In this document: positions 40,943-53,518 of the stretch, in pieces | How the letters are laid out: each line of letters opens with the position of its first letter | How positions within the stretch are numbered: position 1 is the stretch's first letter | Virus record (IMG/VR): IMGVR_UViG_3300042503_000209 | Span: 44,134 to 108,133 of that record | DNA from: a virus | DNA: 64,000 nt | Reading direction: 5' to 3' (one strand) | Notes under the pieces: generated by a model | Database searches by the model: none | Told to the model about the DNA's origin: nothing | What the model saw: the letters and a program-made list of their open reading frames with translations, nothing else | Translations under genes and position numbers: made by a program

Positions 40943-40999
40943 TACATTAATAATTTACGAAAAATCTACGAGGTTTCCTACTTAAACTTTCAGGGTTTA
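40943..40999 (-). promoter_or_regulatory. Putative phage promoter/operator, copy 2
   Basis: Minus strand TAAACCCTGAAAGTTTA-AGTAG-GAAACCTCGTAGATTTT-TC-GTAAATTATTAATGTA; matches 21758-21814. Confidence 0.65.
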
Positions 41000-42313
41000 A
41001 GCATTATGAGTAAACTCTGATATTTTACCTTTGGTCAAGTGGTGGATTTCCATAACTGCTTGACGCTTAGACCCCGTAAACTTGTTGTGATAATGCCAAT
41101 AATCTGACTTAGATAAAGAAGGAAGATGTTTAATTGAGAAGCCATGTACCTCATTATCTGTTACAAATTCTACTACTTTCTTAGTATGAAAGTGTCCAGT
41201 GTAACAAGTTCTAAAGCTAGTCATACCCCATTGTAAAGGGAACTCAGTAGCATAAACGAGAGGTGTGTTTTTCTTAGTTACGTCACCATGTTCAAATGCA
41301 AAGAAGTTCTCACCCCATGTGATAACCTTTCTTTCAGCGTAGTTGGCATTAAACGTAATAGAAATTTCTTGTGTAAAGCACTTAGATAGTGCATGTACTA
41401 AATGGTAGGAAGATAAACGGTCATGGTTACCAGGTAGGTAAACCACCTCTAGTTCTTTACAGAACTGCTTAATAAAGTTAATTGACCAGAACATTGCGTC
41501 AAAAGCCTCATCATAGGCATCCTGAGCTCTAAGGTCAGAGTCTACAGGTGTTCCCTTAGTAGTTAGTCCACTAAAGGTATCCATGTTAAGAAGGTCCCCT
41601 CCAATCACATATATGATCTTTTCGACCATATGAGCATGATAAGATCTTAGTACAAGACTCTTAATGCTTTCTTTAAAGTCATCTACTATAGATAGGTTAC
41701 CCTCTTTACCAAAATGGAGATCCTGTATAGACAAGATCCCCACCGTAGGCTGGTCAAAACTTTCATTTATAAAAACCTCTGCAACGGGTTTATATACAGG
41801 TTGAAATGACTTTAGCGTTTCAGCTAAAAAGTCTTTCGGCTCCAGTTGTTTCTGAGTGACCATAGCAGAAACCAACCAGTAATCTTTGTGTTGTTTATTC
41901 CAATAAGAACTAAGCTTCCACTTATCAGTGTCTATCTTAAGTATTCTAATAATTTCTTCTGGACTTTTAGGTTCAGCAAAGGCTATACCTTTTATTTCTG
42001 CTGTACCATCATCCAAGTTTTCTTTAAACTCTACCACCTTTTCTTTGTTTTGATTGATAGCTTCTACTAAACTATCTTCAAGTTGGGTGATATACTGTGA
42101 CTTAATTGCCTCATCATCAATGAGTTCTAACATTCTTTGTCCAGCAAAGTTTATTAGTTGTGTGTCCAGTTCGTCTTGTAAAAGACTCTTAGTTTGTAAA
42201 ATTTGTTTTTTGATTTCTTGGTATTTCTCTAAAGAAATCCCTAATTTTATGGCACAGAACTCATCTGTTTTTTTCCATTTGAAGGAGCCATACACCTGGT
42301 TGATTAGTGTCAT
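40997..42313 (-). CDS. Calcineurin-like metallophosphoesterase, 438 aa
   Basis: Complete motif set: QDLHFG, GGDLLN, PGNHD, EHGD, TGHFH. Confidence 0.88.
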   Translation of the reverse strand: MTLINQVYGSFKWKKTDEFCAIKLGISLEKYQEIKKQILQTKSLLQDELDTQLINFAGQRMLELIDDEAIKSQYITQLEDSLVEAINQNKEKVVEFKENLDDGTAEIKGIAFAEPKSPEEIIRILKIDTDKWKLSSYWNKQHKDYWLVSAMVTQKQLEPKDFLAETLKSFQPVYKPVAEVFINESFDQPTVGILSIQDLHFGKEGNLSIVDDFKESIKSLVLRSYHAHMVEKIIYVIGGDLLNMDTFSGLTTKGTPVDSDLRAQDAYDEAFDAMFWSINFIKQFCKELEVVYLPGNHDRLSSYHLVHALSKCFTQEISITFNANYAERKVITWGENFFAFEHGDVTKKNTPLVYATEFPLQWGMTSFRTCYTGHFHTKKVVEFVTDNEVHGFSIKHLPSLSKSDYWHYHNKFTGSKRQAVMEIHHLTKGKISEFTHNA

Positions 42314-42480: not shown

Positions 42481-42708
42481 TTAAACTACTGTAGTAAAGC
42501 TCCTTGGTGATCCATAAGTTCCACCACCACAATTTGCTTCTACAGTACCAGTATACGATGATTCTGTTAATCCTGTAACTATTAATAAATTTGTAGGTGT
42601 AAGAGTTGTAGTTACGTCTGAAGGATTAGTAGTAGGCCAATACTTTACCCTATACCCCAACGAAGGAGTCGGTACTACTGCTGGAAAAGTTATATTTAAA
42701 GTTGGCAT
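42481..42708 (-). CDS. Single FN3-like domain protein, 75 aa
   Basis: LNITF...GYRVKYW...VTGL...YTGTVEANCGGG; paralogous to the N-terminus of the 372-aa protein. Confidence 0.7.
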   Translation of the reverse strand: MPTLNITFPAVVPTPSLGYRVKYWPTTNPSDVTTTLTPTNLLIVTGLTESSYTGTVEANCGGGTYGSPRSFTTVV

Positions 42709-42911
42709 TATGAATTAGTATTTATCCAGTTATCTGCTTCAATAAGATTATTAAAGAATGGACTAAGTGTATTATAATCTTTCATTACCACGTTTTTCAT
42801 ACCATCATATTCTTTATAAATAGTATAGTGGGAACCGTTAAGATCATATGAAGCATGGATTACATTATCCATTCCTAAATTATTTTCTACTATAGCTGTT
42901 AATTCTTTCAT
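42708..42911 (-). CDS. Hypothetical protein, 67 aa
   Basis: TAATG-coupled to both neighbours; no motif recognised. Confidence 0.6.
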   Translation of the reverse strand: MKELTAIVENNLGMDNVIHASYDLNGSHYTIYKEYDGMKNVVMKDYNTLSPFFNNLIEADNWINTNS

Positions 42912-44029
42912 TATACGACAGGTGTTGTTGTATCATTAGTATCTATGTTACCTACGTTTGTAGATCTGTTATATGTAATAACAGCTAAACGCTGACCTCT
43001 TGATATAGCCGCATTAACATTAGGACTTTCTAAATCAGAAGATCCTGTAGCCGTGCCGCCATTATTTCTAGCTGTAATAACTTTACTTGCAGATGTTCCT
43101 ACTAAAGTTGCTGTAGCTGTAGGGTTAGTATAACCAAATGCTGGACTACCTGGAGAAGGACCTTGCTTAATCATACATCCTCCTTTATAAAGAGTAAAAC
43201 TTATATTAACAGGATTAGTACCTAAAGTTACCCACCATAACGCACGACAATCAATTACTACCTCATTTTGACCAGCTCCAAGCTGTGTAAAGTCAATTAA
43301 TACAGTTTCAAAACCTTGAAGTTGATTATCTCCACCCCACATTGCTAATGGTTTAACAACCATATCACAAACATTACCACTGTTTATATACCCTGCAGAT
43401 TGCGGAGTTCTTAAGTACTGACCATAACCAATATGTTTACCTTGACCATTTTGATCAGCATAAGTTGTACCATCAATAGATACTATTCTTGTACGTGTAT
43501 CTAAGTCTGTACCATTAGTAAACTGATAAGTTACTACCATGTAATCAGCATCAAACGTAAAGTTTGTTTCACCAATTACAATGTTTTCTGTATTTACACA
43601 ACCCGTAATAGTATCTGTAACAGTAGCAATATATGTTTGACCACCAGTTAAACCAGTAGCAGTTATTGTTGTTTGTACAGGAGATGTATTCCAGCTATAT
43701 GTATATGAACCAGAACCGCCTACAATATTACTAATTGTAGCAGTACCATTAGTACCTTGCTGATTAGTTGGAGATGTAGAAGAAATATTAAATGTTACAT
43801 TACAAACAACGTCTGTAAAGTTTACTCTAGTAGAGTTACCAAAGCTACAAACTGACTCAATAGTACCAGTATAATCATATCCAGATAAATTACTTATAAC
43901 GGCAGGACTACTTGTAACAGTTGTAGTTAATACTGTTCCAGGTGTACTAGTTTCCCAATATCTAACTAGATATCCTCCAGACGGTGCTGGACTAGCTGCA
44001 GTAAAATTTATAGTTAATTGATTAGCCAT
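42911..44029 (-). CDS. FN3-like + SprB-like repeat adhesin/decoration protein, 372 aa
   Basis: N-terminal FN3-like domain, then NGTATISNIVGGSGSYTYSWNTSPVQTTITATGLTGGQTYIATVTD (SprB-type repeat), then a C-terminal beta domain. Confidence 0.7.
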   Translation of the reverse strand: MANQLTINFTAASPAPSGGYLVRYWETSTPGTVLTTTVTSSPAVISNLSGYDYTGTIESVCSFGNSTRVNFTDVVCNVTFNISSTSPTNQQGTNGTATISNIVGGSGSYTYSWNTSPVQTTITATGLTGGQTYIATVTDTITGCVNTENIVIGETNFTFDADYMVVTYQFTNGTDLDTRTRIVSIDGTTYADQNGQGKHIGYGQYLRTPQSAGYINSGNVCDMVVKPLAMWGGDNQLQGFETVLIDFTQLGAGQNEVVIDCRALWWVTLGTNPVNISFTLYKGGCMIKQGPSPGSPAFGYTNPTATATLVGTSASKVITARNNGGTATGSSDLESPNVNAAISRGQRLAVITYNRSTNVGNIDTNDTTTPVV

Positions 44030-44033
44030 CTAA

Positions 44034-44471
44034 TTATCCTAAACATTGATTTTTACGAGTGTAGCTACCACCACTAACTGATCCGTCAATGGCACATACT
44101 ATTTGTGGTGTTGATAAGCCTGTAGAATTAAATACTGTTACAGCTGTTGAACCACCGCATGGTGTATATGAGTATTCAGCATTATCAAGAAGTTCAAATT
44201 CGTAACAAACAGAACCACCAGTTCCTTGTACGCCAAATGTTTCGACTACTTCTAAACCTGAACCACAATCAACTAATAGTTTAACTTCTAAAGGATAACA
44301 AGCTGGTACTCCAGATATTACAATAGGGTTAGCTCTTTTATTAGGTTCTGTATACCAAACATCATCTCCTACAATTTTCCACTGAACAGTATATCCACTA
44401 TCAGGCATAATACTAGCTGTAGAATACTGAATAGTTAAAGTCTTTAATACATTACAAGGTGCTACTGGCAT
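44034..44471 (-). CDS. Cys-rich FN3-like protein, 145 aa
   Basis: LTIQY...GYTVQWK...ISGVP...LLVDCGSG plus a small Cys-rich C-terminal domain. Confidence 0.65.
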   Translation of the reverse strand: MPVAPCNVLKTLTIQYSTASIMPDSGYTVQWKIVGDDVWYTEPNKRANPIVISGVPACYPLEVKLLVDCGSGLEVVETFGVQGTGGSVCYEFELLDNAEYSYTPCGGSTAVTVFNSTGLSTPQIVCAIDGSVSGGSYTRKNQCLG

Positions 44472-44482
44472 ATGGTTATTTA

Positions 44483-45139
44483 TTATAGAATTGTACCTGT
44501 ACCACTCACTTTAACTGGTGAGCCGACAAATGCTCTAAATATTCTTGGTGTTCCTTGAACTACTGTAATTGTAAATATTTGATGATCAGTTCCTGTTGCA
44601 GTAATAACTGTAGCACCACCAGACAATGCTGTAGTCGGTGCAGCAGAAACTACAAAAGCTGTAGCATTAGTAACAGAAACAACTGTAGTGTTTGCAGGAA
44701 AAGCTCCAACACCAGCAGTAACTTCAACAGTCATGCCAGCAACAAGACCTGTAGTTGAACCTACAACAATAGTTGTAGTAGATCCGGTTGCTCCAGCAGC
44801 TGATGTATAAATTGGACCTAAACCTAAATATCTTACTACCATTGGTGTAGTAGTAGTTGAAGTAGCTGTATAATTGATTCTAGCAATTGGAGTAACTAAT
44901 AATGAATTAACAACTTTATGTAACTTAGTCAATACAGTTGTCAATCTATCACCATCTAAAATAGATAATGCAGGTAAATTTGAACCAATAAACTTGGTGC
45001 AATCAGCTACAATAAGTTCATCACAAACTTCTCCACCAACACATGGTGTCAAATTAATTGCGTTAGTAGGTTGGCAATCTGCACAACCATCGTTGCAGTT
45101 ACCTAATGGTAGGGGAGTATCGTTACAACCGCATGACAT
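44483..45139 (-). CDS. Cys-rich virion structural/decoration protein, 218 aa
   Basis: N-terminal Cys cluster. DCTKFIGSNLPALSILDGDRLTTVL parallels NCVIWQGPDLSCINLCNGDTISSVV of the 411-aa protein. Also a VGSTTGLVAGMTV beta module. Confidence 0.6.
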   Translation of the reverse strand: MSCGCNDTPLPLGNCNDGCADCQPTNAINLTPCVGGEVCDELIVADCTKFIGSNLPALSILDGDRLTTVLTKLHKVVNSLLVTPIARINYTATSTTTTPMVVRYLGLGPIYTSAAGATGSTTTIVVGSTTGLVAGMTVEVTAGVGAFPANTTVVSVTNATAFVVSAAPTTALSGGATVITATGTDHQIFTITVVQGTPRIFRAFVGSPVKVSGTGTIL

Positions 45140-45164
45140 AGTCTTATATTATTAAAAGTTTATA

Positions 45165-45719
45165 TTATGGTTGAGCTGTTAATTCAGCAGTTACGTTTGT
45201 AGGAGCGTTACATACAGGAGGAGCAGATGTCACACCAGTTGTAAACGCACAATCAGTTTTAGTAAATGTTCCTGCTGTAGGAATCACTCTAAGTTTATAA
45301 GTTGTACTAGCAGTTAAACTACTAAAAGTTCCTGTAAGAGTTGTAGTTCCTGTAGGAGTTTGTGAAGCTAGTTCTGAGTTACCTGTTGAGTCAAATAACT
45401 TAACAGAATAAGTTGTCACTGATCCACCAATCTCTGGAAAACTATAAGACAAACTTGTAGAAGCTGGTGTTATAGTAACCGTTGGACAAATTATATTAAT
45501 CTTTTGTACAGTAGGACTTACTGTAGATGTTCCACCATTACAAGCAGTAGTGATTCTAAAATCATAAATTAAATTATCACTAAGTCCAGTAACATTCACC
45601 GTAGCAGTTGTACCCGACACAGTACTAAAAGTAGTCCATGAAGTAGTTGTTGCAAGTTTATATTGCACACTCTGAGATGTAGACCCTACGCCAGGTGTCC
45701 AGGCTAATGTTACGTTCAT
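45165..45719 (-). CDS. Tandem fibronectin type III protein, 184 aa
   Basis: VTLAWTP...VQYK...VTGLSDNLIYDFRI and FSSLTASTTYKLRV are FN3 signatures. Confidence 0.85.
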   Translation of the reverse strand: MNVTLAWTPGVGSTSQSVQYKLATTTSWTTFSTVSGTTATVNVTGLSDNLIYDFRITTACNGGTSTVSPTVQKINIICPTVTITPASTSLSYSFPEIGGSVTTYSVKLFDSTGNSELASQTPTGTTTLTGTFSSLTASTTYKLRVIPTAGTFTKTDCAFTTGVTSAPPVCNAPTNVTAELTAQP

Positions 45720-45720
45720 A

Positions 45721-46956
45721 CTATGTTAGTGTTGCAGTTACTGATGAAATAATTGGACAAGGTACAGCAACTGTAAATGTAGCTGTCTTAGAACAACTGT
45801 TACCGTTCTTAGTAAGACATCCTTCTACAGTAATTGTATATGCTTGTGAAGTATTAAGTGCAGCTCCAGAAACAGTGTATGTAATACCATCAGTATCTGT
45901 AACAGCTGTTACAAGATTTACAAAATCAGTATATGTTTTACCTGAAGCATCTTTAATAGTGATTTTAGATCCTTGAGCTGTACAGTTAGTAAATCCAGAA
46001 GGAATTACAGTACCACCACCATTAAAAAATACAGTAACTTGAGTACGGTCTTGATTAGTTGCTGCACTAAATCCAAGAAGAAATGCAGAACAATCTGTAG
46101 CACCAACTGAAGTTTTAAGATCAAAAATTGTTTGACGCATATCACATAATACAACCCAAAGGTTTTGAACTGCAGAAGCAACTGTAGTAGAAGCAGCGTT
46201 CCATCCAGGTAGGCTACTAATAGTTCCTGTAGTACTTAAAGCACTAGATGCTCCAAGTCCTTGACACTGCTGAGCAATAGCTGTTGTTAACGCAGTGTTT
46301 GTTCCTAATACACCTCTTAATGTACAATACTGAGCTTCTAGTTCATCAAGAACTAAATTCATAGCTGTAGGTGTACCAGGAGTTAAAATACAATTAGGAG
46401 TTACTAAAGGAAGAGTTGTTGTAGGTCTATTTTCTAAAGCAGTAATTCTAGTATTATGAGAAGCAATAGTAGTAGCATGACTATCTACGGTAGCTTTTAA
46501 AGTACAAAACTGATTACCAAGTCTTAAAGTGTATTGATTATGAATCAAACTAGTAACAGGTTGACCTGTTGTTGGATCATTATATTGTAAACAAGTAGGT
46601 AAAGCTATATTAGGTTCTGTAAAAGAAGAACCACCACCACTAGGTAAAGCATCTACTTTTGCATTAAGACAACATACTTTATCAATAATGAAATCCAATA
46701 CTGCTGACAGGGTCTTAGTAGTTGGAGCAGGATTTACGGACGAGCAAAAAGATACGAGACATGCTAGGTCCAGATTAGTTAAATCTAAAGATGTCTTAAT
46801 CGTACAAAGGTCCGTTGCTACCTTGTATACTACACTCGATATAGTGTCACCGTTGCAGAGGTTAATACATGACAAGTCTGGACCTTGCCATATGACACAG
46901 TTTGAAGATACTGGGGAACAGCCCTGATCAGCAGTATTAGATTTCGTAGGTAACAT
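45721..46956 (-). CDS. Cys-rich segmented coiled-coil fibre/anchor protein, 411 aa
   Basis: 20 Cys; repeated amphipathic helices ending in Cys; HNTRITALE coiled coil; C-terminal Ig/FN3-like domain. Confidence 0.6.
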   Translation of the reverse strand: MLPTKSNTADQGCSPVSSNCVIWQGPDLSCINLCNGDTISSVVYKVATDLCTIKTSLDLTNLDLACLVSFCSSVNPAPTTKTLSAVLDFIIDKVCCLNAKVDALPSGGGSSFTEPNIALPTCLQYNDPTTGQPVTSLIHNQYTLRLGNQFCTLKATVDSHATTIASHNTRITALENRPTTTLPLVTPNCILTPGTPTAMNLVLDELEAQYCTLRGVLGTNTALTTAIAQQCQGLGASSALSTTGTISSLPGWNAASTTVASAVQNLWVVLCDMRQTIFDLKTSVGATDCSAFLLGFSAATNQDRTQVTVFFNGGGTVIPSGFTNCTAQGSKITIKDASGKTYTDFVNLVTAVTDTDGITYTVSGAALNTSQAYTITVEGCLTKNGNSCSKTATFTVAVPCPIISSVTATLT

Positions 46957-48922: not shown

Positions 48923-51900
48923 TTATTTATTTTTTAGTTCTTTGATTTCTTTCTTTAACTCTTCTATCTGAGATTGCTGCTCTTTAATACCTTCTATTAA
49001 CAAAGGTACAATACGATCATATTTTACAGTAAGATAATTTTCTCCAGTCTTAGATATTACTTCTCCTGTCTCAGCTATACCCTGCATATCAAATGGAGCT
49101 AACGAAACTGCTTGAGGTAGTACGGCTTGAATCTGTTGTGCAGAAACCCCAGCTTGTTCTTTTTGATTAGTATATCCAAGACTACGTGCTAAATCATTTT
49201 CTACGTATACAAAACCTTCTAATGATTTAATTTTTTCTATAGCATCTGTAATAGTATTTATCTTAGTTTTTAATCTTTCATCAGAATAGTATGCTGTAAT
49301 ATCTCCAGAAGCTAATATATTACCATTTCCAAACTCACCTCCGCTAGATTGAAATCCAACTAATGAAGAACCATTTATTATTTGATGATGCCAAGTTGCT
49401 GAGTTACTAAAGTTCCATAATGCACCATATGATTCAGATAATCTAGCCCCAGTACTATTACTAGTAGAAGCTCCTGATCCAGTTAATGCTAAAACACCAC
49501 CAAAGTTTAGTCCATTAACAGTTGCATTGTTAGATAATGTACCGGCACTACCTGCACTTCCTGTAATATTTATACCCCACGTTCCTGAAGCATTGCCACC
49601 AGTTAATGTAGGAGAATATGAGTTATAATTACTTGAATGTAAAGATTGAACAAGACTAAAATCTACTTGTTTATCTGTAGTAGGTTGAGAACTATTTGTT
49701 ATACTTGTTACTTTATTAATTACTCTACCTGCATAAGCTGTATAAACTTTAATATTAAAACCTTCCCAATAACCACCAGTAGGCCACCAAAAAGCTAAGT
49801 TTCCACCAACTCTTATAGCTCTTACACTTATTGGTTTACCGTTAGATAAACCAGCAGTTGCTATAATAGTACCACCATATATATACCCTTGAATTTGTAT
49901 ATCAATCAACATTTGATTAAAATAGGAATTACCACGTATTTCTAATACAAAAGGATCACCATACTCCCCGTATACTATACTAGTTTGAACAAGAGTACCA
50001 TTTGGAAAATCTCTATTACTATGTAAAAAATCAGTAGATGAGTCTGTTGCAGAACCTGCAATATTAATACTCCAAGTACCATCGGCTATACCACGAATAG
50101 AGTTTTTAACATGAGCTAATGTAGATTTTCTAGACCACCCATCACCATTAGAAGTAATAAAGCTACTAATAGTAGGATTTTCTGTTTCAGTTGTATTAAA
50201 ATTAATATGATTAGCATAAATATAACCATTAGCATCACGTTGTACAATATGACTACCATTAACACCTGTTGTTATATTTCCTGCTGCTACACTGCTTCCT
50301 GATATAGCTCCAGTATTTGATAATGTAATTACTGGTGTACCGCCTCTATTTGCAGAAAATATTCTTACACCAGCACTAAATCTCATTGAACAATAAGCAT
50401 CATTAAGATCTACTATGTCTCCATCATCTGCTAATATAATACCACCTCCTGTAGCATTTCCAGATGATACAGTCAAATTACCAGTTAAAGTTAATGATGT
50501 TGCTGATGATGTAATATAACCTGGGCCGTTACTTAATTGGTTTAAATTAGTTAGATTGCCCGCATGCCAAATAGCATAGTCAGTATCTCCTCCATTTGCT
50601 TTTACATAAGTAAACCAAGATAAATATAAAGTACCTTGACCGTATACCCCTAATGTGTTAACATAAAGTTCAGCCCAAGCTGATAGTGAATTATTGTGTC
50701 CAAATACACCAGGTCTACCTGTATAGTTTCCAAGAAAAGATGACTTATCAGCACTAGCATTAAATGAACCTATCCTACCTCTCCATGCTGTAGAAGTACC
50801 ATCATGCTGAACTTTTAAAGCTGAGTCAATACCATTTATTGTTATAGCGGTACTTGTACTTGCACCTCTACCAGTTACTGAGGAAAGTGTATCAGTTTCT
50901 GTGTATCCAGTTATATAACCGCTTGGATTTGTACTATTGTATGGTATATATCCTAAAGCATTAGTTACTTGTGTAGATGTAATACTAGTAAGATATCCTG
51001 GACCATTTGTAAGCTGGTTCAAATTAGTCAAGTTTCCTGCATGATATACTGTATTACCACCAACAGATAAAACACCACCAAAACTAATAGCCATTACTGA
51101 ACTATTGTTTATTCTCCATTCATAAGTAGTACCGTTAGTTTTAGCAGCAGGTGTACCAATAATAGTATTATATTCTGAATCCCACGATCCTACGTTTTGT
51201 ACAAGTCTTGCACCACCTTGAAACCAAAGTTCATCAGAATGCACTCCAGGTCCTTGAAAATCATTAAAAACTCCAATAGTCATTCTAATGTCCTCAGTAG
51301 TTGGAGCACCATTTGTATTAGCAGAATCATCCTGCATTAATATCCAACCATAATCTGAAGTTTGGTTAACCTTGGACTCAAATTTCATCATGGTGTAACC
51401 ACCAGATGTAGTTGGTCTAAAGTGAGCTACAATACCATCTTGTTCATTTACAGTATCAAGTCTAATATATCTTCCATCATGGTTATGAGATGGCAAAGAA
51501 GTTAAATATGTATTATTATCATAAGATACAGTTGTACCTGAAACTTTTACAAACCCTGTTCCATTTAATGTTGTACCAGAACTAATTGCTACACCATTAA
51601 CTCTAAATGTTCCTGTAATATTTACATCACCAGCAACTTGTAATAAACCAGCTCCTGTAATAGCTGTTGAAGATCCTACTAGTACAACACCACCTGCTGG
51701 CTGAAGTCTTAATGTACCAGAAGCAATAGATGTACCATAATATGTTTGCCACTGACCAAATGCTGTAGCAGTATTACCACCAGCTACTAGTTGAACAAAT
51801 CCATTATTACCACCTGTTGCAGGATTAGAATCTATTAATATTAACTGTGCAGGTACACCTGAAGTATTTTTAATAATTAGTCCACCATTTACATCTAACT

Positions 51901-53518
51901 TAAAAGCTGAAGATTCAAACGGAGAAGCTGTATTAATACCTATAGCACTTCCGTTATCAAACGCTACACTATTACCAACAGATGTAGAACCTGTCCATTT
52001 AGAAAGATAGTTAGTTGTACCTGAACCAGAAATACCAGTAGATATAGTCCACGATCTATCAGCTGATAAATCATAACTTACACCGTTAATTGTTAATGAA
52101 CGAGTTGTAGGTACACCACCAAGTCCTGATAATGTAGGAATATTAGAAGTTAATGCTATAGTACCTGAAGCATCAGGTAATGAGTAAAATCTTTGTGTTG
52201 TTATAGCAGTAGCACTAAAGTAAAATGCTTTTGTAGCACCACTAAAATAAAATCCAAAACCATCTGTTCCTACTGGTCCAATCGTAGTATATCCTGAACC
52301 ACCTAATCCAAGACCTGCAGCTTGTTCAAAAATTAAACCATTTACTGAACTACCATATTTTGATATTGTTAACCCTCTTGATGTTAATCCATATAATCCT
52401 AAATCAACGTTAGATGTTGCACCAGTGTATGGTACATAAGGACTTAAATCATAAGTAGGTAATGTCTGCCACGTTTTATCACCTCTCCAATATTGAGCAG
52501 TTGTTCCTGCGATAATAGCTGGTTCTTTAGTACCTATTAACGTAGTAATGCTTGTACTAAAGTTAGCATCATCTCCTAATGCAGCTGCAAGCTCATTAAG
52601 AGTATTAAGTGTAGTTGGAGCTGCGTCTACAAGATTAGCTATACTTGTATCTACATATGTCTTTAAAGCATAGTTAGCTTTCTCAGATGTCCAAATAGGA
52701 TCAGTCTCTGTAAAAGATTGTAAGTATCTTCCGTCCGCTTGTGTTTTAGTATAATAGTTTATTTTTTCTGACGTCCATATAGGATCTGTTTCTGTGTAAG
52801 AAGTTAGATAACCAGCTAACGCATGGTTGCCCCAAGTGTACGCTGTATTCCAATTACTAATATTTGTAGTGGTGATAGCTTTAACATGAGATGAAACTGT
52901 AGGATCAGTTTCAGTAAATGATGTTAAGTATCCGGCAAGTGTATGATTACCCCATCCAAACGCAGTGTTCCAGTTAGTAGAATTATCAACTATACTAGTT
53001 CCCCATGCTGTTCCATTAGATAAAGGTATACCAGCAGATGGATAGACCATTGCATCTATAGTAAATGTTCTATTGGCAGATAAATCAGCGGTCTGACCAT
53101 TAATAGTAATAGTTCTTGTTACAGGTACATAGTTACCCACTATACCTGAACCATACTGTGGTATATTAAGTATACCTGTAGTGCTATCATAAGTAGCTGG
53201 ACCAGATGTATTAAAAGTAGTTAAGTTAATAGCTTTTCTAGCTCTTCCGTCAGAAAAATATAAGGCTTGACCTTCTGTAACTTGATCTGTATTATAATCT
53301 CCTCTAAGAGCTGTAACTGCACCTGTTCTACCATATACAGAAGTAACAAGGTTGCCACCACTCTGTGTGATAAGCTGTGCTACTGTAGCAGATGATATCC
53401 TACCATTAACTCCGGGCACAAGAACTTTATTCTGCGTACCAGTAGTAGCAGGTATAGAAGCTACAGATACGCCTGCAGGAAAATAAGCATTACCATAACT
53501 ATCTACTTGATAAGACAT
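48923..53518 (-). CDS. Tail fibre 3 with C-terminal peptidase S74 intramolecular chaperone, 1531 aa
   Basis: TAYYSDERLK...GVSAQ...YDRIVPLLIEGIKE; G/T/S/N-rich repeats; TLNELAAALGDD motif. Confidence 0.9.
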   Translation of the reverse strand: MSYQVDSYGNAYFPAGVSVASIPATTGTQNKVLVPGVNGRISSATVAQLITQSGGNLVTSVYGRTGAVTALRGDYNTDQVTEGQALYFSDGRARKAINLTTFNTSGPATYDSTTGILNIPQYGSGIVGNYVPVTRTITINGQTADLSANRTFTIDAMVYPSAGIPLSNGTAWGTSIVDNSTNWNTAFGWGNHTLAGYLTSFTETDPTVSSHVKAITTTNISNWNTAYTWGNHALAGYLTSYTETDPIWTSEKINYYTKTQADGRYLQSFTETDPIWTSEKANYALKTYVDTSIANLVDAAPTTLNTLNELAAALGDDANFSTSITTLIGTKEPAIIAGTTAQYWRGDKTWQTLPTYDLSPYVPYTGATSNVDLGLYGLTSRGLTISKYGSSVNGLIFEQAAGLGLGGSGYTTIGPVGTDGFGFYFSGATKAFYFSATAITTQRFYSLPDASGTIALTSNIPTLSGLGGVPTTRSLTINGVSYDLSADRSWTISTGISGSGTTNYLSKWTGSTSVGNSVAFDNGSAIGINTASPFESSAFKLDVNGGLIIKNTSGVPAQLILIDSNPATGGNNGFVQLVAGGNTATAFGQWQTYYGTSIASGTLRLQPAGGVVLVGSSTAITGAGLLQVAGDVNITGTFRVNGVAISSGTTLNGTGFVKVSGTTVSYDNNTYLTSLPSHNHDGRYIRLDTVNEQDGIVAHFRPTTSGGYTMMKFESKVNQTSDYGWILMQDDSANTNGAPTTEDIRMTIGVFNDFQGPGVHSDELWFQGGARLVQNVGSWDSEYNTIIGTPAAKTNGTTYEWRINNSSVMAISFGGVLSVGGNTVYHAGNLTNLNQLTNGPGYLTSITSTQVTNALGYIPYNSTNPSGYITGYTETDTLSSVTGRGASTSTAITINGIDSALKVQHDGTSTAWRGRIGSFNASADKSSFLGNYTGRPGVFGHNNSLSAWAELYVNTLGVYGQGTLYLSWFTYVKANGGDTDYAIWHAGNLTNLNQLSNGPGYITSSATSLTLTGNLTVSSGNATGGGIILADDGDIVDLNDAYCSMRFSAGVRIFSANRGGTPVITLSNTGAISGSSVAAGNITTGVNGSHIVQRDANGYIYANHINFNTTETENPTISSFITSNGDGWSRKSTLAHVKNSIRGIADGTWSINIAGSATDSSTDFLHSNRDFPNGTLVQTSIVYGEYGDPFVLEIRGNSYFNQMLIDIQIQGYIYGGTIIATAGLSNGKPISVRAIRVGGNLAFWWPTGGYWEGFNIKVYTAYAGRVINKVTSITNSSQPTTDKQVDFSLVQSLHSSNYNSYSPTLTGGNASGTWGINITGSAGSAGTLSNNATVNGLNFGGVLALTGSGASTSNSTGARLSESYGALWNFSNSATWHHQIINGSSLVGFQSSGGEFGNGNILASGDITAYYSDERLKTKINTITDAIEKIKSLEGFVYVENDLARSLGYTNQKEQAGVSAQQIQAVLPQAVSLAPFDMQGIAETGEVISKTGENYLTVKYDRIVPLLIEGIKEQQSQIEELKKEIKELKNK

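Follow-up and report, generated by a model that had tools for sequence, protein, structure and literature searches.

The window analyzed here, a 64,000-nucleotide (nt) stretch of DNA (positions 44,134 to 108,133 of the 108-kb IMG/VR virus record IMGVR_UViG_3300042503_000209; approximately 34% G+C), contains at positions 42,481 to 46,956 a cluster of seven open reading frames (ORFs), which lie on the minus strand, as do all genes in this region, and encode proteins of 411, 184, 218, 145, 372, 67, and 75 amino acids (aa). The cluster appears to encode a virion fiber, probably a tail fiber, that is assembled from separate proteins. Its genes are cut between strands A and B of fibronectin type III (FN3) domains, and the C-terminal tail of one protein probably completes, in trans, the domain with which the next protein begins. 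A donor-strand arrangement had previously been proposed from the DNA sequence alone (referred to here as the sequence-only reading), with the 411-aa protein as a donor-only anchor, the 184-aa protein as both acceptor and donor, and the 372-, 75-, and 145-aa proteins as acceptor-only tips; these roles fit the census of related loci reported below, except for that of the 145-aa protein. The parts of the proposed joint are as follows.

45721..46956, minus strand: 411-aa protein, putative anchor or proximal fiber protein; its parts, from the N-terminus, are a Cys-rich motif, long helices, an FN3-like domain toward the C-terminus, and the donor tail
45724..45759, minus strand: putative donor tail of the 411-aa protein, residues 400-411, CPIISSVTATLT; orphan FN3 strand A carrying the candidate lock Cys
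45720..45723, minus strand: junction of the 411- and 184-aa genes inside an FN3 domain; TAG stop, one base, and ATG of the 184-aa gene
45489..45719, minus strand: N-terminal acceptor domain (residues 1-77) of the 184-aa protein, an FN3 domain reduced to strands B-G; its only Cys, C60, lies where strand F ends
45228..45488, minus strand: domain 2 of the 184-aa protein, residues 78-164; complete FN3 domain with strand A in cis and both Cys (C78, C157)
45168..45212, minus strand: putative donor tail of the 184-aa protein, residues 170-184, CNAPTNVTAELTAQP
42911..44029, minus strand: 372-aa candidate tip protein; acceptor FN3 domain, weak SprB-repeat match, and a C-terminal domain of no assigned family
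43805..44029, minus strand: acceptor FN3 domain of the 372-aa protein, residues 1-75; single Cys (C61)
42481..42708, minus strand: 75-aa protein; one acceptor FN3 domain (strands B-G) and nothing else; single Cys (C60)

At the junction of the 411- and 184-aa genes (ACA TAG t ATG), the stop and start codons fall within an FN3 domain. The ORFs of the 184-, 372-, and 75-aa proteins open at the first ATG, GTG, or TTG past an in-frame stop, and a hidden longer N-terminus is thus impossible. Residues 3-72 of the 184-aa protein match positions 16-82 of the 84 positions of Pfam fn3 (PF00041; E 3e-10, 40.6 bits against a gathering cut-off of 25); because the match begins at profile position 16, the approximately 14 positions that hold strand A are absent from the heads. 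Residues 12-65 of the 75-aa protein correspond to fn3 positions 25-75 at a score below the gathering cut-off (E 7e-4, 20.2 bits), and its longer counterparts P0219 and P0236 match at positions 15-80 and 13-79, respectively. Furthermore, the 75-aa protein is 42% identical to residues 5-75 of the 372-aa protein, and both are in register with domain 1 of the 184-aa protein. The profile matches and this register bear out the sequence-only reading, in which the three proteins start directly at a strand-B-like segment.

The cut is conserved among relatives. The 411-aa protein has 358 relatives in IMG/VR, and junctions were compared in about 20 distinct loci (39-89% identity), which present the tail, a TAA or TAG stop, a spacer of 1, 3, 6, or 8 nt, always ATG, and a start at strand B; the spacer base varies (A, G, T, or C). 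The family of the 184-aa protein comprises 128 clusters in the protein database, nearly all of those listed being 181-189 aa in length, and all aligned members begin with M-N/A-x-T/x-L/I-x-W, i.e., with Met at strand B. The C-terminus of the 411-aa protein occurs in 113 clusters, most of 405-418 aa and the rest shorter except one of 514 aa, and none of these is near the 595 aa expected of a fused 411+184 form; a search of longer proteins for 184-type fusions returned only generic multi-FN3 proteins of at most 37% identity. Close fused homologs were found in neither search, one distant fused form (P0123, see below) being recovered; the homologs are therefore almost always split and are not, as a rule, single fused genes. 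A profile search covered 1.84 billion proteins; among its best 150 matches, the 11 with a single domain all start at residue 1 of the protein.

The same junctions bear on the explanation that the 411- and 184-aa proteins are decoded as one protein by programmed frameshifting or readthrough, or that the split is a sequencing error, which is extremely improbable. A +1 shift at ACA TAG T ATG would yield one continuous FN3 domain; however, spacers of 1, 3, 6, and 8 nt correspond to three frame relations, which rules out a fixed frameshift or readthrough, and the stop may be TAA or TAG, the spacer base is variable, no shift-prone motif is conserved, ATG is always kept, and the same split recurs in hundreds of independent assemblies. 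A programmed +1 frameshift of the prfB type was considered and rejected, since neither a conserved shift site nor a fixed frame relation is present.

The identity of the orphan tails is indicated by P0123 (450 aa), a rare natural fusion in which CVLPSGVTASIT stands in cis ahead of a 184-type domain and repeats the motif of the orphan tails CPIISSVTATLT and CNAPTNVTAELT; P0123 itself ends in the tail CPLPTNLTVTIS. This arrangement in cis implies that the orphan tails are homologs of strand A. The tails of the 411- and 184-aa proteins share the conserved pattern Cys-x-x-Pro-Thr-x-Val-x-Ala-x-Leu. The spacing from this Cys to the Trp of strand B is 18 residues when the 411 tail is joined to the 184 head, and 21-23 residues when the 184 tail is joined to the 184, 75, or 372 head; the cis values are 16 residues for domain 2 of the 184-aa protein and 20 both for the repeats of P0196 (a bacterial multi-FN3 protein) and for P0123. 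The two-chain lengths thus resemble those of domains in cis, which places the cut in the A-B turn.

The distribution of Cys residues provides a further line of evidence. Profiles of the headless domains were searched against all frames of 79 related loci, and the 114 matches of the 372/75 type comprise 79 at a start codon, 24 with 5-12 residues ahead (145-aa type), and 11 internal ones. Among unique internal complete domains, an F/FG Cys is present in 66 of 69 and a Cys within 20 residues upstream in 66 of 69. Domains of the 145-aa type have the upstream Cys in the same chain (24/25) together with the F/FG Cys (25/25). The unique headless domains all have the F/FG Cys (69/69), and an upstream Cys of their own chain is present in only 4. 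The missing Cys is found on the donor tails, which have one Cys each, 11-14 residues from the end. In FN3 domains, the N-terminus shares a pole with the BC and FG loops, and an upstream Cys and an F/FG Cys can consequently bridge. A Cys lock across the joint, which the sequence-only reading had raised as a possibility, is strongly supported by this comparison, and a disulfide probably locks the tail to the acceptor.

Furthermore, the tails are under selection at the protein level. In the 411 tail, the Cys at position -12 never varies (codon differences: 36 synonymous, 0 non-synonymous), and the tail is conserved at least as strongly as the folded strand preceding it. In the 184 tail, C170, P173, and A178 are invariant and T174 is nearly so (54 aligned sequences). 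Counted from the Cys, positions 4, 6, and 8 (T, V, and A) have 69/0, 26/0, and 50/0 synonymous/non-synonymous differences, against 23/69, 26/47, and 16/81 at the intervening positions 5, 7, and 9. Such period-two constraint is the signature of a β-strand with one buried face, despite which the 184 and 411 tails pack on nothing in cis in AlphaFold2 monomer models. These patterns are relevant to the explanation that the split is a by-product of module shuffling, with the Cys-Pro-Thr..Val-x-Ala motif as a recombination joint and the orphan strands as leftovers that have no role in assembly. In its favor, tips and adaptors differ greatly between related loci while the border motif stays. However, conservation of the tail at the protein level and not at the DNA level argues against a mere recombination joint, since a DNA joint would conserve bases, whereas synonymous change is free here and the constraint alternates residue by residue; leftovers would also be expected to decay, and the 411 tail has not decayed relative to the adjoining strand. 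As a replacement for completion in trans, module shuffling is very unlikely, and it is compatible with completion in trans as an added benefit.

Structure prediction is in line with an incomplete head and a free tail. In the AlphaFold2 model of the 184-aa protein (54-row alignment; predicted local distance difference test, pLDDT, 95), domain 1 has six strands and domain 2 has seven, with strand A at residues 82-85; the modeled strands of domain 1 are 3-6, 13-22, 29-35, 40-43, 52-60, 65-67, and 71-73. By comparison with the seven strands of an FN3 domain (A, B, C, C′, E, F, and G), domain 2 is complete, whereas domain 1 is without strand A; according to the model, it is a six-strand sandwich of FN3 fold that is incomplete within one chain. 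The best structural matches of the model are tandem FN3 pairs, such as chicken tenascin (1qr4_A; Z 12.7, root mean square deviation 3.6, 158 aligned), in which residues 1-164 are superposed on chain residues 14-175, leaving the first 13 tenascin residues unmatched. C60, C78, and C157 are all invariant in the alignment of relatives. The tail region (residues 164-184) forms no strand. In the model of the 411-aa protein, helices span residues 39-56, 83-102, 139-175, 199-217, and 259-283 and are followed by a β domain (295-396, pLDDT approximately 90), and residues 397-411 have no secondary structure (pLDDT 55-61). A Foldseek search with this model listed generic FN3 domains alone (E 4e-3, prob 1.0), and comparison of the protein with PDB sequences gave nothing better than E 0.1. 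The N-terminal Cys-rich motif of the 411-aa protein (..SSNCVIWQGP..) is invariant among relatives. In neither monomer model does the tail fold back in cis, which agrees with the sequence-only reading of both tails as an isolated strand A.

The pairing of the 411- and 184-aa proteins, likewise put forward in the sequence-only reading, was modeled as a complex of residues 283-411 of the former and 1-78 of the latter, with alignments built for this analysis and the score given without contacts. The score was 0.39 (0.39, 0.36, and 0.43 in separate runs), and the best of three controls scored 0.00; the partners had pLDDT values of at least 77, and the runs agreed in at least 95% of contacts. Of 80 solved complexes, 58 passed the mark set for this score, as did 2 of 110 mismatched pairs, and the passing scores of 0.60 or less belonged to only 7 of the solved complexes and to both passing mismatches; moreover, FN3 domain halves may score through likeness to solved FN3 structures. 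The model therefore lends weak support to the pairing and adds a little to the case for completion in trans, which the comparative evidence had made likely beforehand.

Donor tails and headless domains tend to occur together. In 68 loci with enough downstream DNA, scored for the donor tail of the 411 homolog and for headless proteins, both were present in 30, neither in 30, the donor only in 8, and the acceptor only in none; by eye, at least four of the eight donor-only loci do have diverged acceptors (L034, L039, L043, and L070). A tree of the shared N-terminal 300 residues yields four independent contrasts, in which the acceptor follows the donor in three to four and never opposes it. A distant clade has a minimal set, consisting of an anchor of approximately 500 aa that ends in CPPPTxVxxxIxI, a protein of approximately 180 aa in which an FN3 domain is complete, and a single headless tip (227-406 aa). 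In L029, the 411-type tail is directly followed by a 372-type acceptor, and L022 has no 184-type gene; these arrangements imply that a 372-type socket can take a 411-type tail, and the joint thus looks generic. Strict parity of donors and acceptors was also considered and does not hold across genomes.

Several observations weigh against completion in trans. The sign test on the four contrasts is not significant (p 0.125-0.25), and the whole 108-kb record has two donor tails (411, 184) for three sockets (184, 372, 75). Two of the 128 clusters of the 184 family, P0052 (271 aa) and P0089 (297 aa), run past the tail into an unrelated C-terminal domain, and the tail is therefore not always terminal. 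AlphaFold2 folds the headless N-domain of the 184-aa protein at pLDDT 94-97, implying that it may be stable alone, and the score of the complex model is low and was given without contacts. Phage proteins fold in a reducing cytoplasm, so that the disulfide could form only after release. Most of these points also bear on the explanation that headless FN3 domains are stable six-strand domains on their own, that the tails are conserved for another purpose, such as docking on another part of the virion or pairing with each other in a trimer, and that the open strand-B edge serves homo-oligomerization instead of receiving the neighboring tail: the confident fold in the absence of strand A, the unequal counts of donors and acceptors, the two variants with a further domain past the tail, and the weak complex model all speak for it. 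Nevertheless, the Cys pattern calls for a second Cys supplied by a different chain, which is precisely what the tails carry, the cut lies exactly in the A-B turn with pieces that add up to the length in cis, and donor tails and headless domains co-occur across clades. Domains that are stable alone are accordingly an unlikely explanation, and completion in trans is preferred.

In the proposed mechanism, the 411-aa protein would be the proximal part, anchoring the fiber through its invariant, virion-binding N-terminus, helical rods, and FN3-like domain. The 12 C-terminal residues would supply strand A to the FN3 domain whose strands B-G make up the head of the 184-aa protein; they would run alongside strand B of that head and bury alternate side chains (Val, Ala, and Leu). 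The tail Cys (Cys400) would meet the lone acceptor Cys (Cys60) at the end of strand F, and the joint may turn covalent once the particle is released into an oxidizing medium. In favor of such a bond, stabilizing disulfides link tail proteins in a crassvirus (PMC10172136). The 184-aa protein would be an adaptor, with a socket at its head, one complete FN3 domain, and a plug of the same kind at its end, which would complete the head domain of the socket-only tips of 372 or 75 aa. No protease would be needed because strand A is simply not encoded ahead of the acceptor. Within the cluster, the genes are separated by gaps of 1, 25, 11, and 4 nt and joined by two start/stop overlaps, and this close spacing may favor assembly near the ribosome.

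Modules with both socket and plug could, in principle, polymerize head to tail, as the sequence-only reading had suggested for the 184-aa protein. Besides the 184-aa protein, L020 has a 93-aa single-domain version that consists of socket and plug only, and polymerization is conceivable because the tails of both bear the same buried residues (x-V-T/S-A-x-L) as the 411 tail; it is nonetheless rather improbable. If true, it would yield a pilus-like, disulfide-locked fiber of variable length with interchangeable socket-only tips and with no chaperone, usher, or protease.

Genes upstream of the 411 homolog in three distantly related loci (L029:2809-5910, L039:3651-5951, and L055:359-2728) start at strand B (MALKLTWIP.., MATIVVTWTP..) or have donor-like ends (..CEAPTNLTVSVVQA, ..CAPPDDLVVTLLP, and ..CPPPTNVNSYIRV), suggesting that further fiber proteins use the joint.

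The candidate tips vary beyond their sockets. Counterparts of the 372-aa protein are 266-437 aa in length, and their C-terminal parts vary between relatives; queried with that part of the 372-aa protein itself, the ESM Atlas offered no lead of 0.9 or above. Counterparts of the 75-aa protein in relatives bear extra C-terminal domains (172 to about 230 aa). Quite different C-terminal parts are as expected of host-binding ends, and the tips may accordingly be the parts that contact the host. The remaining proteins of the cluster are listed below.

44034..44471, minus strand: 145-aa protein; FN3 domain of the same type with a 7-residue N-terminal extension that has its own Cys
44483..45139, minus strand: 218-aa protein; Cys-rich N-terminus (MSCGCND..CNDGCADC); PHROG 6005 virion structural protein
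42708..42911, minus strand: 67-aa protein; no family match; its gene shares bases with the end of the 372-aa gene and the beginning of the 75-aa gene

The 145-aa protein had been counted among the alternative tips devoid of strand A, a role that is ruled out by its short N-terminal extension of seven residues, which includes a Cys; its FN3 domain is probably complete in cis. The 218-aa protein, which shares a short N-terminal motif with the 411-aa protein (weak likeness, E 0.02), probably represents a second protein of the anchor type. Relatives strongly conserve its tail, ..GSPVKVSGTGTIL, which nevertheless has no Cys. This tail was considered as a putative third donor, which would give three donors for three sockets; however, the Cys is absent, and the balance of donors and sockets fails in L013, L014, and L020. 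In the distant clade, the counterpart of the 218-aa protein (about 180 aa) terminates in a complete FN3 domain. Among the relatives examined, the 67-aa gene was present only where a gene of the 75-aa type follows (L002, L007, and L008), and its product could be an assembly factor for the 75-aa-type tip.

The cluster is flanked by a gene for a 1531-aa fiber protein on one side and by a block of virion structural genes on the other. The C-terminus of the 1531-aa protein (window positions 48923-53518, minus strand; ..YSDERLKTKI..) resembles, by eye, an S74-type intramolecular chaperone domain. Between the fiber cluster and the virion structural genes lies a gene for a 438-aa DNA repair exonuclease-like protein (40997-42313, minus strand; PHROG 704, E 3e-48), the position of which is conserved among relatives. 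Cultured relatives are only remotely similar, the closest link being a structural protein with 26% identity to one of Cellulophaga phages phi17:2 and phi4:1, the fiber genes of which differ from those of this cluster. A search for cultured relatives by DNA gave a single 67-nt match only, and tblastn found no match of the 411-aa protein in GenBank phages. The 1680-aa neighbor protein had no match among PDB sequences and thus offers no evidence for membership in Crassvirales. The source is an uncultured phage, the host of which is probably one of the Bacteroidota.

The host range of phages is set by fiber tips. For most uncultured phages, it is not established how fiber parts encoded by separate genes are held together, as the flexible fibers that crassviruses build from several proteins illustrate (PMC10172136). 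A plug and socket that is small and generic would account for the swapping of tips by whole-gene moves, the gene borders inside domains, and the conserved lone Cys, and it predicts neighboring fiber proteins from sequence alone. The parts are a tail of 12-15 residues, a domain of 75 residues, and one Cys per side, and, if the joint is real, they could be used as a natural covalent protein connector.

Among cellular proteins, the nearest relatives are giant surface proteins secreted by the Bacteroidota type IX secretion system (P0144 and P0196, among others), with 6-30 tandem FN3 repeats and a Por_Secre_tail sorting domain. They have the same FN3 subtype, with C-x-T-P-T-x-L-x-A opening each repeat and a Cys in strand F, whereas all of their domains are complete in one chain and none is split between genes; they may hint at the host phylum and at where the modules came from. 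In chaperone-usher pili (Fim, Pap), subunits lack the C-terminal G strand, an N-terminal donor extension fills its place, and a periplasmic chaperone and an usher are required. The likeness lies in an incomplete Ig-like fold that is completed by a strand of the next subunit and in adaptors and tips placed in an ordered chain; however, the polarity is reversed, given that the phage domains lack the N-terminal strand A and the donor is C-terminal, and Pfam and PHROG searches matched no chaperone or usher family among the cluster proteins.

No description of donor-strand joints in phage fibers was found in the literature searched, the nearest being the split nozzle of Pseudomonas podophage A1002 and the BppU-BppA pair of Lactococcus phage Tuc2009. 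In A1002, strands missing in gp42 are supplied by gp39 (PMC13730344), and two phage tail proteins thus rebuild domains from two chains; by contrast with the proposed joint, these are β-propeller and platform domains of a nozzle and not an FN3 fiber connector, and they form no reusable plug and socket. In the baseplate tripod of Tuc2009, a C-terminal β-hairpin of BppU completes the sheet of BppA domain 2, and the composite resembles a titin domain (PMC4742702). The donor is a 25-residue hairpin in a single case, and the description consulted mentions no Cys lock (PMC4742702), whereas the joint proposed here would employ a single strand A as donor, cuts at several gene borders of one locus, an adaptor with socket and plug, and a conserved Cys pair; with no PDB match of the 411-aa protein better than E 0.1, the likeness is one of mechanism only.

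By mechanism, the nearest system appears to be the type V pili of Bacteroidota (FimA, Mfa1), in which a protease removes an N-terminal strand, a C-terminal donor strand of another subunit takes over its position, and the tips have no donor strands (PMC13655056). The sequence anatomy of the phage proteins fits such an arrangement, and the complex model lends it weak support: in both systems, a C-terminal donor would replace the missing N-terminal strand of a β-sandwich, base and stalk subunits would donate and tips would not, and the host phylum is probably the same. Type V pilins are, however, two-domain transthyretin-like lipoproteins from which the Rgp protease removes strand β1, and their subunits are not covalently linked (PMC13655056). 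The 184-, 372-, and 75-aa phage proteins open at strand B with no signal peptide or lipobox, and the phage joint would differ in its FN3 fold, a strand A that is not encoded, a probable Cys lock, and assembly in the cytoplasm of the infected cell, the two systems having no sequence relation. The phage joint is not a member of the type V pili and would only work alike.

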